DNA of 64,000 bases from an uncultured virus (IMG/VR IMGVR_UViG_3300014203_000013). Taxonomy: Duplodnaviria > Heunggongvirae > Uroviricota > Caudoviricetes. The notes under the pieces were generated by a model. The model was not told where the DNA came from, made no database searches, and saw only the letters and a list, made by a program, of their open reading frames with translations. The stretch lies in the IMG/VR virus record IMGVR_UViG_3300014203_000013, one strand, 5' to 3'. Shown one piece after another: positions 1,054-34,615 of this stretch; position 1 is the first letter of the stretch; every line of letters starts with the position of its first letter. A program made the position numbers and the translations under genes.

Positions 1054-1145
1054 TGGCGGTTCTGACAAGATTCGAACTGACATTATCAGAATCAATTCTA
1101 ATTCTGGGATGAAAACCCGAGAACCTAACCATTTTCCATAGACCC
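1054..1145 (-). pseudogene. Degenerate tRNA-Glu(UUC) with long variable arm
   Basis: GGG-TTTTCAT-CCC anticodon arm, TTCGAAT T-loop, GCCA end; mismatched acceptor, D and T stems; variable hairpin TTAGAAT-TG-ATTCTGA. Confidence 0.65.
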
Positions 1146-1183: not shown

Positions 1184-1272
1184 TGGCAAGGGTAGCGGGA
1201 TTCGAACCCGCACAAGCGCAGTGCGTTTCCAGGATGAAAACCTGGCGAGTTAACCAATTACTCCATACCCTC
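1184..1272 (-). tRNA. tRNA-Glu(UUC) with 17-nt variable region
   Basis: GAGGGTA/TACCCTT acceptor, GAGT/ACTC D-stem, CCAGG-TTTTCAT-CCTGG anticodon arm, GCGGG-TTCGAAT-CCCGC T-arm, G73, CCA. Confidence 0.85.
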
Positions 1273-1278
1273 AAGATT

Positions 1279-1730
1279 TGGCGTTCAGCGGTGTTTCAGT
1301 AAACTGTTTTCATCTCCATCGGACCTTGTGGAATCCGGTTTCTTAGACTAACACCTTTCAAACCTTCAGTACACTCCAATGTGGAAGCGCAATCCAGATT
1401 GAACACAAAACTAACGCCCGAGTCCTTTCACCGTACTATTAAATACGGTCAGGTAGACACCACCTGTTTTTAAGAAACTTTTTGATTGACTTCAAACGAT
1501 TCCTGTTCCCGTATAGGGCTGGAACCATGTATCCATCAACCAGTCCCTGTTTTTTAAGACAGGGCGATAAGTCTCACTTAATTCCGGGCGGATTTTAAAC
1601 CTATCCATTTCCTGAGCTTTTCATTCAGGCCGGTCTCGTAGAGACTTTTACAAATCGTATTCAGTTTTCAATTATACCCCAGCTCATTTCTGAACTTTTC
1701 AGCAGGGCGCGGTGTCAAACCGCTTTCGCC
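1279..1730 (-). ncRNA. Large structured ncRNA, ROOL/GOLLD-class candidate
   Basis: ORF-free 450 nt between a promoter and tRNA-Glu; many hairpins, long-range pair CGCCCGGA/ACTCGGGCG, possible pseudoknot GATAGG/CTTATC. Confidence 0.6.
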
Positions 1731-1750
1731 TTTTTTCTTCAACACCGTAG

Positions 1751-1779
1751 ACTTTAGCAAAATCGCCGCCGTCTGTCAA
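1751..1779 (-). promoter_or_regulatory. sigma70-type promoter for the large ncRNA and tRNA-Glu
   Basis: TTGACA-N17-TAAAGT. Confidence 0.75.
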
Positions 1780-1806: not shown

Positions 1807-1896
1807 TTCTAAATCACGGAATCGAACCGTGTCTGGTCGCGTTTTAGCCATGAGGTTGCCACCTTCATAGCATCGCTTCCTTCTGACCTATTCAGA
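1807..1896 (-). ncRNA. tRNA-like RNA (acceptor stem and T-arm; one long arm replaces the D and anticodon arms)
   Basis: TCTGAAT/ATTTAGA stem, CACGG-TTCGATT-CCGTG T-arm, GGTC/GACC, GCG/CGC, GCTATGAAGGT-GGCA-ACCTCATGGC hairpin. Confidence 0.6.
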
Positions 1897-25739: not shown

Positions 25740-26610
25740 GTCCACAAAGAGTTTTTATCCATGACAAAAAAATAGATTCTTTATGCTTAAAGTCACGATA
25801 GTCTATAAGCAACAAAGGAATGTTGTTTTTCTTACAATATTCAGTTTTAATTTTGTCCCTTATCTGAAGTGTCTGAAATTCGTCAGCAGAAAGAGTTTTC
25901 CCCTTTTTGAAAGTAATTGGAGAAAAATGTTGCTCTCCTTGTAATTCTACAAGACACAAAAGATTAGAACCTTTAAAAATAGCGAAATCAAATTTCAATC
26001 TACGAACATAGAGGCAATCTGGAAAGCTGAATTGTGTTTGAAATGAATAACCATTTCTTTCTAAGAAAATCTTAAATTCCATTTCTGCCCTAGAAACCAA
26101 ACATCCACAAGAAAGCTTGTGACCGCTTCTTAATAGAGAAACTTCACCATATGTCGTGCATCCACAATCACATAGGCATTTCCATAAAGATTTGTTTTTC
26201 CTTTTCCCCACACTTTCGATTGCAACCAGTTTGCCGAATCTTTCTCCTGTTATGTCTAATACTTTTGAACAAGAACCGCAAGAAGTTGTATGTCCACTTC
26301 GAATATTACCAGCCTCTGCAATAAATTCGATTCCGCATTCACACATACAAGAATATAGTTGTTTATGGTTTGTAGTAGAAAACAGACCGATAACGTAAAG
26401 TTTACCAAAGCTTCTTCCTGTTAGATCCTTTCGTCTCAAACAGCCACAACTTTTGGTTCTATCAGTTACTAAAGCCTCTGTCCTTACTGTTTTAAACCGA
26501 CCACAAGAACAAAAACATTTCCAGTAAGTATGCCGATTCCTACTTTTCTCTTTTCCTAAAACCGTTAGGTTCCCGAAATGCCGCCCAGTTAAGTCTGTTC
26601 TGTTAGACAT
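25714..26610 (-). CDS. Putative homing endonuclease: three DLTG.rFG.L..WxCxCxCG..SCG repeats plus Vsr/PD-(D/E)xK-like domain
   Basis: Repeats visible; LKFDFAIF, VELQGEQHF, RDKIKTEYC. Confidence 0.8.
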   Translation of the reverse strand: MSNRTDLTGRHFGNLTVLGKEKSRNRHTYWKCFCSCGRFKTVRTEALVTDRTKSCGCLRRKDLTGRSFGKLYVIGLFSTTNHKQLYSCMCECGIEFIAEAGNIRSGHTTSCGSCSKVLDITGERFGKLVAIESVGKRKNKSLWKCLCDCGCTTYGEVSLLRSGHKLSCGCLVSRAEMEFKIFLERNGYSFQTQFSFPDCLYVRRLKFDFAIFKGSNLLCLVELQGEQHFSPITFKKGKTLSADEFQTLQIRDKIKTEYCKKNNIPLLLIDYRDFKHKESIFLSWIKTLCGLDKLGDIC

Positions 26611-27553
26611 TTTTTAATGATTTAAACGTATCAATTAATTTGTGTTTATGCAATCCTGCCATTCGCATACCTTCAATTTTCTGTACAACAACCTCGTCTT
26701 CACAAATACCAGTACGAATATATTTGTCAAGAACATCATAGGTAAAACCAAAATTATCTTCATCTGTTTTCCCGCACATTCCATCCGTAGGAACTTTTAC
26801 AACCAACGCCTCTGGCAATCCCAACTCGTATCCCAAAGCCTTGACTTCGGTAACAGTCAGATTTCCTAGAGGAGAAAAATCTCCGGCCGCATCTCCAAAT
26901 TTAGTGCTATATGAAATGAAGTTTTCACTCAAATTACAGGTGTTCGCAACCCGTCCGTTAACACAGGCGGCAATTCCGTAAAGAGTTGTCATCCGAAGCC
27001 TAGCCGGGGTGTTGTTCCAATACACTGAATTGAAATACTGTCTAACTCCGCCGTTTTCACACACCATGCCGTCAAACCCGGCATCGATTTTTTTAGTCAA
27101 TTCCTTATAGGCACTTCCGATATCCACGAGTATATGCTGGATACCCAAATGTTCTACAAGCTTGTAACTGTACTCAATATCATCCTGTTTACAGTTCGGC
27201 ATCAAAACCCCAATAACCCGATCCCGACCCAAGGCTTCCACACACAGGGCAGCTACAACACTGCTATCTTTCCCTCCGCTGATCCCGATAATAGCCTTAC
27301 ATCCGTCACCGTTTAGTTTAAACCAGTCCCCAATCCACCTGACGACAGATTCCCGAATTCTGTAGTAGGAGGTGTTATTCAGATACATTACGGCATCATT
27401 GTCAGTCTGGAAAAGAGTATTAAGTCTTCCATCACTCTTCCAATGCCAATTGCCGTCATCCGTTTTAAACCCTTCCCAATCAACTTCTGTTGTCCTAAGA
27501 CAATCCCCATTTCTGCTAACGACAACGTCTCCGACTTTAATGTTTTTGAACAT
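26603..27553 (-). CDS. nadE: NH3-dependent NAD+ synthetase with short N-terminal extension
   Basis: GISGGKDSSV, NTPARLRMTTLY, TKFGDAAGDFSPLG, KVPTDG, DEDNFG. Confidence 0.92.
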   Translation of the reverse strand: MFKNIKVGDVVVSRNGDCLRTTEVDWEGFKTDDGNWHWKSDGRLNTLFQTDNDAVMYLNNTSYYRIRESVVRWIGDWFKLNGDGCKAIIGISGGKDSSVVAALCVEALGRDRVIGVLMPNCKQDDIEYSYKLVEHLGIQHILVDIGSAYKELTKKIDAGFDGMVCENGGVRQYFNSVYWNNTPARLRMTTLYGIAACVNGRVANTCNLSENFISYSTKFGDAAGDFSPLGNLTVTEVKALGYELGLPEALVVKVPTDGMCGKTDEDNFGFTYDVLDKYIRTGICEDEVVVQKIEGMRMAGLHKHKLIDTFKSLKNV

Positions 27554-27887
27554 ATTCTTCCTTTCCCCACATAACCAGAATAGAATAATATCCTGTTTCT
27601 TGCACCTTTTCAATATCTGTAACAGATAAGGAATCGTCAAAAACGGAAACACTGTATCCGAGTCTCCGAATCCTCGGCACAATATATTTGACAGTCCTCC
27701 CGATATAACCTGCGCTTGACTTCCCGGTTTCGCCCGCTTCAACAGAACGAAAAATCTCCTTTTCAAGAAGTCTTAAGCAACTTGCGTCGATCTCCCGTTT
27801 ACGCTTGTCGGCGTCGATAATCTGTTCTTTCCATCTCGTGTAACGGGAAATAGCTTTCGCGACGAAACATGGATATAGCATTTTCAA
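27537..27887 (-). CDS. Hypothetical protein
   Basis: ORF in operon. Confidence 0.55.
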   Translation of the reverse strand: MKMLYPCFVAKAISRYTRWKEQIIDADKRKREIDASCLRLLEKEIFRSVEAGETGKSSAGYIGRTVKYIVPRIRRLGYSVSVFDDSLSVTDIEKVQETGYYSILVMWGKEEYVQKH

Positions 27888-33886: not shown

Positions 33887-34615
33887 CTATGCTGTCGGGA
33901 AAGACCATCCGTCATGTTTGGCCTGTTCAAAATTGAAACCTTTATCAAAATGCATCAAAACAACTCGTTTTCTTTCTTCTGGATCGGTTATGATTTGACA
34001 AAGTTTTTTGTATGAAAGATGAATGTTATCAGGATAGTCAAGCCAACTGCAATCATGATAGATTTTCTTTACCTGATTTAAACGGAAAAGAGAAAGGATG
34101 TTTGTGTTAAATCCTTTAGAATCCCCGCTGTAATAAAAACAATCTCCTAAGCTGTCGGCAAACAAAAAACCAAAAGATTCCAGTTTTTCCGCATGACTTT
34201 CTTTTATGGGGAAAACAGAAATATTCACGAGTCCAGAAGGGCTGAGCATATCTGTTTGAAAGACTTTCTTTTTACAAGCTTCCAACACGTTCTTCTCATA
34301 TATCTCATCTAGCGTCCCCTGAAGGTCAAGAATTTGAAAAACAGCCTTCGGGGCATAGACCTTCGGATGAACTTTCAAGACATAAAAGCAATAAAAAAGG
34401 AGACTTGAAAGACTTCCGCAATGATCACTGTGGCTATGTGAGACAAAAATGTTGATATTCTTGAATCCGTTCAAAAGGTCTCCGACCTGAATTTGGTGAA
34501 AAACGGATTCTCCGCAATCCAACAGAAATGCGGAATTACCAACGGGAAGACATGCTGACGTGTTCCCCAGTGTCGTGTTGAAACAACTTCCTGCTCCTAA
34601 AAATTTCAAGTCCAT
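33887..34615 (-). CDS. MBL-fold hydrolase (RNase Z-like)
   Basis: LGAGS, LDCG, SHSHSDH, SH, YSGD, MH. Confidence 0.85.
   Translation of the reverse strand: MDLKFLGAGSCFNTTLGNTSACLPVGNSAFLLDCGESVFHQIQVGDLLNGFKNINIFVSHSHSDHCGSLSSLLFYCFYVLKVHPKVYAPKAVFQILDLQGTLDEIYEKNVLEACKKKVFQTDMLSPSGLVNISVFPIKESHAEKLESFGFLFADSLGDCFYYSGDSKGFNTNILSLFRLNQVKKIYHDCSWLDYPDNIHLSYKKLCQIITDPEERKRVVLMHFDKGFNFEQAKHDGWSFPTA

Follow-up and report, generated by a model that had tools for sequence, protein, structure and literature searches.

Some phages encode large RNAs (GOLLD, ROOL) beside their tRNA genes, and the locus described here asks whether an interval between a promoter and a tRNA-Glu gene holds another such RNA and, if so, whether it belongs to a known family. 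An earlier note, made from the 64,000 nt of DNA analysed here (the window), had read the interval as a structured ncRNA of about 450 nt with its own promoter, either a compact ROOL/GOLLD variant or a new class.

The phage and its tRNA cluster

The window corresponds to positions 1-64000 of the 124-kb contig C1 in the MAG G000, and its gene content is phage-like (a split DNA polymerase III alpha, NrdD, two RNA ligases, methylases). An aldolase-like protein encoded nearby had one relative among viral contigs, in the 304-kb record IMGVR_UViG_3300025858_000009 (hereafter G001), and long collinear protein matches connected G001 to the MAG contigs C1, C2, C4, C19, C20, C38, C194 and C324. This collinearity marks the window as part of a jumbo phage that was binned together with a bacterium; as judged from the contigs, a near-whole phage of ~300 kb is present inside the bacterial MAG. 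Its phage contigs are those just listed together with C257 and C336, which duplicate each other in part and perhaps represent two strains. The capsid protein of the phage has 56% identity to LR745208.1 and 36% to gp27 of Bacillus phage G. More than half of the words of region 1000-2700 were present in three runs, each from a different study labelled as landfill metagenome, and one of these runs may be the source; an activated-sludge run contained the G001-type variant of the RNA on a contig of 205 kb.

The minus strand carries, one after another, tRNA-Ser, tRNA-Ser, tRNA-Asn, tRNA-Pro, a promoter (2002-1974), a tRNA-like element, a second promoter (1779-1751), the RNA, tRNA-Glu (1272-1184) and a second tRNA-Glu-like gene. 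The tRNA-Glu(UUC) directly downstream of the RNA (1184..1272, minus strand) has a long variable arm and is also its neighbour in G001; the second, degenerate tRNA-Glu(UUC)-like gene (1054..1145, minus) was called by ARAGORN, is absent from the Rfam matches and folds poorly. The tRNA-like RNA upstream (1809..1896, minus) is a separate gene, with the first of the two promoters as its own.

Promoter and probable leader

The sigma-70-type promoter TTGACA-N17-(TG)-TAAAGT (1751..1779, minus) was borne out as the earlier note had read it, with 10 of 12 consensus positions and an extended TG, and both hexamers are kept in G001; transcription would start near 1744-1746. The idea that this promoter is special to the RNA did not hold: there are 72 such sites in 8 phage contigs, 24 of them in C1 as compared with 5-17 in five shuffles. 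Past many sites of this promoter family the sequence continues with a similar short stretch; the first transcript bases therefore belong to the family and are not specific to this RNA.

The first ~100 nt (1648..1746, minus; 89 of 99 positions identical in G001) probably form a leader, made up of a small hairpin (1723-1709), a GAAA-capped hairpin (1708-1676) and a recurrent motif (1671-1652), with both hairpins maintained in G001 through two wobble-type changes. The 20-nt motif TTGAAAACTGAATACGATTT (1652..1671, minus) recurs after promoters ahead of tRNA-like genes: C257 holds an identical copy, and variants occur at C1 position 1916 and in C324. tRNA-like sequence begins a few bases from the motif at 1916, in C257 and at G001 198756, and a GAAA-capped hairpin stands ahead of it at 1916, 1671 and G001 192637. 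In G001, three of the five matches to the motif core fall inside the 19-kb tRNA cluster (P ~3e-4, for a pattern picked after the sites had been seen). Because the 20-mer recurs before other stable-RNA genes of the phage, we read the first ~100 nt as a leader, probably a shared one, which would bring the RNA body nearer to 370 than to 450 nt. Thus the ~450-nt unit proposed earlier survives as an ncRNA, with its boundaries corrected to a likely leader of ~100 nt plus a body of ~370 nt.

In its letters the motif at 1671-1652 may resemble a boxA antiterminator. The phage leader is like an rrn leader in having a hairpin and then a linear motif just past a stable-RNA promoter; rRNA leaders show the order boxB-boxA (PMC10250234, PMC8632103). 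The common leader hints that the phage transcribes its stable RNAs as bacteria do rRNA. A literature search for the leader motif found no paper. A search with the leader-motif pattern gave seven loci, one of them a further fragment of this phage lineage with the motif present and the RNA absent. In 4 genomes of the MAG's order, none of 11 motif matches lay before a 16S start; the MAG contains no 16S.

The RNA body and its homolog

The multi-domain RNA body of ~370 nt would extend over 1279..1647 (minus), both ends being predicted, and is identical to the G001 copy at 273 of 356 positions. It would end in CCA, 6 nt ahead of tRNA-Glu; the span from promoter to tRNA is at most 474 nt and contains no terminator-like site on the minus strand. 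Sense-strand ORFs reach only 26-38 aa and none is common to G001, and 10 of the 12 alignment gaps against G001 are not multiples of 3. Frame-breaking indels and the lack of a common ORF thus show that the locus is not protein-coding, in agreement with the earlier note, which had seen no credible ORF.

The dense minus-strand pairing that the earlier note had described was also recovered. The minus-strand fold has an energy of -137.5 kcal/mol, z -3.73 relative to dinucleotide shuffles and z -3.46 in a repeat with 70 shuffles (a small 25-shuffle run gave only -2.13), as compared with z -0.5±0.9 (lowest -2.21) for 12 control stretches of the window and z -2.38 for the plus strand. The G001 homolog folds at -158.4, with z -6.50 in the sense and -2.59 in the antisense direction. 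Among the listed sequencing runs that contain the region, none was an RNA run. Two runs were uninformative on transcription: X7, merely guessed to be RNA, extends over the tRNA-Glu pair (1059-1265) and leaves the RNA gene uncovered, and X8, probably DNA, covers 1352-1511.

The homolog collection that had been proposed gained one member, with conserved folding, and no further one. This sole homolog (G001 193437-193921; 80% identical, 368/461 aligned positions) keeps the neighbourhood of tRNA-Pro, promoter, RNA and tRNA-Glu. BLAST against INPHARED phages gave no match for the window copy and two chance-level matches for the homolog copy, and PLSDB gave one short match only. Exact patterns matched 0, 7 (six by chance plus G001) and 1 time in viral contigs; in GTDB contigs 44 pattern matches were found, none extending past the pattern, and the two matches in metagenome contigs were copies of the two known sequences. 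The four short matches in 400 genomes of the MAG's order (E ~1e-3 to 1e-4) were taken as chance. BLAST of 24 capsid-related records gave no new member, and two covariance models (~170 positions at most) found only G001 in 46 records (42 of the 80 capsid loci and 4 others). The RNA was absent from the tRNA clusters of five more distant relatives in profile and covariance-model searches. A pattern for the long-arm tRNA-Glu matched six loci, among them two other true tRNA clusters, with no RNA in the 1.2 kb upstream. The literature yielded no such RNA, the supplementary files of one relevant survey (PMC10690425) being only partly searchable; that IMG/VR survey lists only motifs of 30-151 nt.

Tests for selection on the fold

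When window and G001 copies were folded independently, 80 of the 134 window pairs returned in G001, as compared with 21±10 (maximum 49) in 70 neutral simulations in which the same changes were placed at random, and the ratio of consensus to single energy was 0.74 versus 0.55±0.04. A stricter null fixed the change sites and redrew the letters: the G001 energy of -158 was reached by none of 50 runs (-134±5), and shared pairs (45±17, maximum 94) and energy ratio (0.68±0.05) were not clearly exceeded. In the structure predicted from the window only, 7 pairs were compensatory where 2.3 were expected (P 0.006). In the machine alignment 26 of the 41 changed pairs of the window MFE fold were broken, with kept versus broken pairs at chance (P 0.50); many of these broken pairs are register slips. 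A hand-built model of the body with 103 pairs gave 86 unchanged, 7 one-sided, 10 compensatory and no broken pairs, a tally biased favourably because the alignment was made by hand from both sequences.

The plus strand showed 10 double changes, as many as the sense strand, so covariation leaves the strand undecided; what assigns the RNA to the minus strand is its promoter, together with the tRNAs and the folding energies. From the comparison of two distinct sequences we conclude that a real RNA structure is very probably under selection here. The claim of a large structured ncRNA with a promoter in a phage tRNA cluster is thus upheld by a syntenic homolog and by conserved folding.

Structural model

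The 5' domain (1569..1647, minus) consists of a helix, 1647-1641/1575-1569, around hairpins 1629-1611 and 1606-1590, the latter with two compensatory pairs; the domain is present in both full-length folds and absent from the body-only fold of the window. It is followed by a central row of four hairpins (1430..1564, minus) at 1564-1545, 1542-1483, 1466-1450 and 1449-1430, with 2, 0 (two wobble changes), 1 and 1 compensatory pairs, respectively. The 3' domain (1280..1418, minus) has a closing helix, 1418-1410/1289-1280, which is seen in both body-only centroids yet is invariant, and two arms, 1403-1357 and 1355-1290, the second with an inner hairpin (1337-1320) and a length-variable hairpin near 1306-1297. 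The inner arms of this domain carry one compensatory and three wobble changes. A 15-nt insertion in the G001 copy folds as its own hairpin.

A search of all helices kept in both copies gave two candidate pseudoknots, non-nested helices with double changes, and both fit free strands of the nested model. Candidate A (1338..1478, minus) pairs 1478-1472 with 1344-1338 and has two double changes (G-C>A-U, U-A>G-U); candidate B (1326..1408, minus) pairs 1408-1404 with the hairpin loop 1330-1326 and has one (U-A>C-G). For helices of at least 8 bp, one carrying two double changes would arise by chance with a probability of 0.07-0.10, and three carrying at least one with a probability of 0.02-0.14. We regard A and B as likely to be present, each being borderline when taken alone (P ~0.02-0.14).

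For segment 1421-1413 there are three candidate partners, all of them invariant, which leaves the global fold ambiguous; GGUGU is present in three copies and has three complementary sites. It is speculation, from these competing partners, that the global fold may switch or that strands may swap between molecules. No palindrome of more than 4 nt common to both copies hinted at self-pairing, and the best end-to-end helix of the RNA is 6 bp.

The nine pairings named in the earlier note can all be read in the sequence, with uneven support in G001. CCCTGT/ACAGGG, CAGGT/ACCTG and ACCGTA/TACGGT are kept by compensatory changes and GCGGT/ACCGC through wobble, and GTCTC/GAGAC keeps four of its five pairs and loses one. 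CCTGA/TCAGG, CGCCCGG/TCGGGCG and GTGTTCA/TGAACGC are readable and invariant, hence uninformative, and the last is in doubt since it is incompatible with pseudoknot B and with two further helices. The proposed pseudoknot GATAGG/CTTATC fails, with three of its six pairs broken in G001 and the same bases used in the covarying hairpin 1606-1590.

Comparison with ROOL and GOLLD

Rfam at gathering score returned only tRNAs, a search at E<=10 of 1000-2700 and 1270-1750 gave nothing credible, and the whole of G001 at gathering score held no family other than tRNA. The ROOL model RF03087 (cut-off 99.1 bits) matched neither G000 nor G001 at E<=10 and recovered the control, pMP118 of L. salivarius, at 130.4 bits; the reverse search, with models of this RNA against true ROOL, gave nothing. 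The GOLLD model RF02032 (cut-off 150 bits) found nothing at the locus and reached at best 9.1 bits elsewhere in G001, in a search with no true GOLLD as control. The Rfam check that the earlier note had suggested (ROOL, GOLLD, tmRNA, RNase P) thus leaves novelty standing: as far as these models can tell, the RNA is uncatalogued, of ~370 nt, and neither ROOL nor GOLLD. The suggestion of a compact ROOL/GOLLD variant was not sustained, and that of a new class was the better of the two, resting on two sequences.

Hallmarks of ROOL are a nested P4-P6 core, a length of ~550-660 nt and several pseudoknots and multistem junctions, and a hallmark of GOLLD is expression that goes up at lysis. Our RNA is like ROOL (RF03087) in lying beside phage tRNAs, in its likely co-transcription, in variable peripheral hairpins and, as modelled with two candidate pseudoknots, possibly in a multi-junction fold; it differs in being ~370 nt long, a row of domains with another helix order and without a long end-closing helix. 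ROOL has a mean length of 581 nt (PMC5737381) and, between 1-17 and 642-659, a 17-bp end-closing helix with long nested stems (PMC12286853). ROOL and GOLLD both sit by phage tRNAs (PMC5737381, PMC12286853). With GOLLD (RF02032), also an RNA of phage tRNA islands, our RNA shares loop-linker pairings (here candidates) and the approximate size of the conserved 3' domain (375 nt in PMC12990946), whereas it has no 5' domain and its helix order is unlike the first 52 listed GOLLD pairs.

These likenesses leave room for a diverged, shortened relative of ROOL or GOLLD beyond the reach of the Rfam models, which we consider improbable. Such a relative would explain the same setting, the match in size to the GOLLD 3' domain, an 11-mer (window 1575-1565) that also occurs in ROOL env-120 (rough chance estimate 0.1) and brief resemblances to the Rfam ROOL consensus (a hairpin bulged on its 5' side, and a GGUGAAA that follows a hairpin). 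It is opposed by the negative searches in both directions, with the true ROOL recovered by its own model, by the different topology, and by the 11-mer itself, whose pairing partner lies downstream in ROOL and upstream in this RNA. The occurrence of an unrelated fold in a setting of this type suggests that phages reached this kind of RNA more than once. A similar setting is also known in Staphylococcus phage K, whose lnc001 and lnc002 are described as large, abundant RNAs at tRNA genes, from an early or tRNA promoter (PMC9241854); our RNA had no BLAST match to any INPHARED phage and, unlike those, is known from sequence alone.

Proposed mechanism and alternatives

On balance we favour, by analogy, a stable ncRNA gene of a new family that lies in a jumbo-phage tRNA island and acts like GOLLD and ROOL. 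Host RNA polymerase would start at the sigma-70-type promoter near 1745, and the ~100-nt leader, with its recurrent and presumably rRNA-type antitermination signal, would probably allow read-through into the tRNA-Glu genes. The 6-nt spacer before tRNA-Glu suggests that host RNase P, whose cut at the 5' ends of tRNAs is an established step of their processing, would release the 3' end of the RNA, the leader being trimmed or remaining loose. The ~370-nt body would fold into three domains, with hairpins marked by covariation, tied by two likely pseudoknots. It would then act in trans as an abundant structural RNA, a scaffold or decoy supporting phage translation, as proposed for GOLLD and ROOL; by that analogy, we lean slightly towards such a role.

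ROOL and GOLLD form protein-free cages (10.1101/2024.12.08.627333, PMC12990946). A cage-like multimer of our RNA, with some loop-linker pairings made between molecules, is conceivable by analogy and rather unlikely. The idea is directly testable, since 370 nt and two natural variants make for an RNA that is easy to transcribe, probe and image. Slightly more doubtful still is a third, compact (~370 nt) class of tRNA-island RNA that combines protein-free self-assembly, an antiterminated precursor and release by tRNA processing; if it were true, no known cage-former of this kind would be smaller, and the RNA would offer a convenient model for the role of its class.

A cis-acting structured leader, controlling or timing tRNA-Glu expression and processing without any free RNA, is as improbable as the ROOL/GOLLD relative. 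The position between promoter and tRNA-Glu, the 6-nt spacer in both copies and the competing, switch-like helices at several segments would suit it. Nonetheless the minus strand has no terminator-like site, no T-box or riboswitch matched, the RNA is missing from the 1.2 kb upstream of the long-arm tRNA-Glu in the two other phages that have one, and 370 nt with pseudoknots is large for such a role.

A shade less probable is that the body is two or three smaller RNAs in tandem. The cluster is rich in small tRNA-like genes, the supported helices are mostly local and the body has a CCA end; against division into parts, no T-arm or internal promoter was found, and pseudoknot A, with its two double changes, spans 130 nt from the central to the 3' part.

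We think it very unlikely that the RNA is a ribozyme substituting for RNase P. The relatives G002 and G025 carry RNase P RNAs of ~200 nt among their tRNAs, none occurs in G001 or in the window's phage contigs, and the size fits. Yet the models RF00010/RF00011, which gave 238 bits for the control host RNA and 25-26 bits for the minimal phage RNAs, found nothing here, and the bulged P4 helix and flanking conserved regions could not be placed by eye. Phage-borne RNase P RNA and tmRNA are of similar size and lie in the tRNA clusters of relatives; their defining motifs are absent here. Least probable of all, to the point of being implausible, is a degenerate tmRNA, intron remnant, CRISPR-related RNA or small-protein gene: there is a tmRNA in the relative G002 and there are type I-C-like repeats in this phage, but our RNA has no T-arm, tag frame or tmRNA match (ARAGORN and RF00023 were negative here and positive in G002 and the MAG), no Rfam match to group I/II introns and no interrupted exon, as it starts at a promoter, a best CRISPR repeat match of 19/32, and no ORF common to G001.

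Other features of the cluster and the phage

The two minimal RNase P RNAs of ~200 nt in jumbo-phage tRNA clusters, at G025:11695-11909 (L180) and G002:124609-124802 (L181), score far under the Rfam cut-off at their 25-26 bits.

The tRNA-like RNA at 1809-1896 combines a 7-bp acceptor-like stem, read by hand and missing from some predicted folds, with a T-arm and a long GNRA-capped arm that replaces the anticodon loop. It is conserved (also at L002 12968-13055) and unseen by ARAGORN and Rfam; with no G3-U70 pair and no encoded CCA, it is no obvious mini-tmRNA. We rejected a permuted tmRNA that would join this element to the RNA downstream, as the two ends of the element pair with each other and the two genes are separated by a promoter.

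Long variable arms occur in both tRNA-Glu(UUC) genes (1184-1272, 1054-1145) and in tRNA-Asn(GUU) (2134-2232), and G73 in the tRNA-Glu at 1184-1272 and in tRNA-Asn. A long arm and G73 are SerRS identity elements (PMC7609411), so that a mischarging or decoy role of these tRNAs is possible. A long-arm tRNA-Glu is also found at loci L184 and L185. Many more odd tRNA-like genes lie at G001 194474-205182, with enlarged or extra arms and CCA ends and negative by ARAGORN; a tRNA-like gene at C324 2718-2838 in G000 reaches 24 bits on the tmRNA model, and the cluster of another relative (G003; L165 19384-19823, L166 11047-11350) has tRNA-like elements with long inserted arms.

The type I-C-like CRISPR repeats of G001 occur singly between tRNA genes (192579, 194342, 199004, 202025) and in an array near 256056-256452; they are also found in C257, C194, C336, C4 and C20 of G000, with none inside the RNA studied here. 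A CRISPR repeat or guide role of the RNA was rejected on that 19/32 repeat match and a best spacer match of 10-12 nt.

Right behind the tRNA-Glu pair lies an endonuclease-like ORF (2-1012, minus) with a weak Phage_endo_I match, related copies of which occur elsewhere in the G001 tRNA cluster and on other contigs in a pattern like that of a mobile endonuclease. Farther into the window, the minus strand encodes an NAD synthase (26606-27766) and a protein of the metallo-beta-lactamase fold (33890-34615) with a sub-threshold match to Apyc1 (anti-Pycsar).
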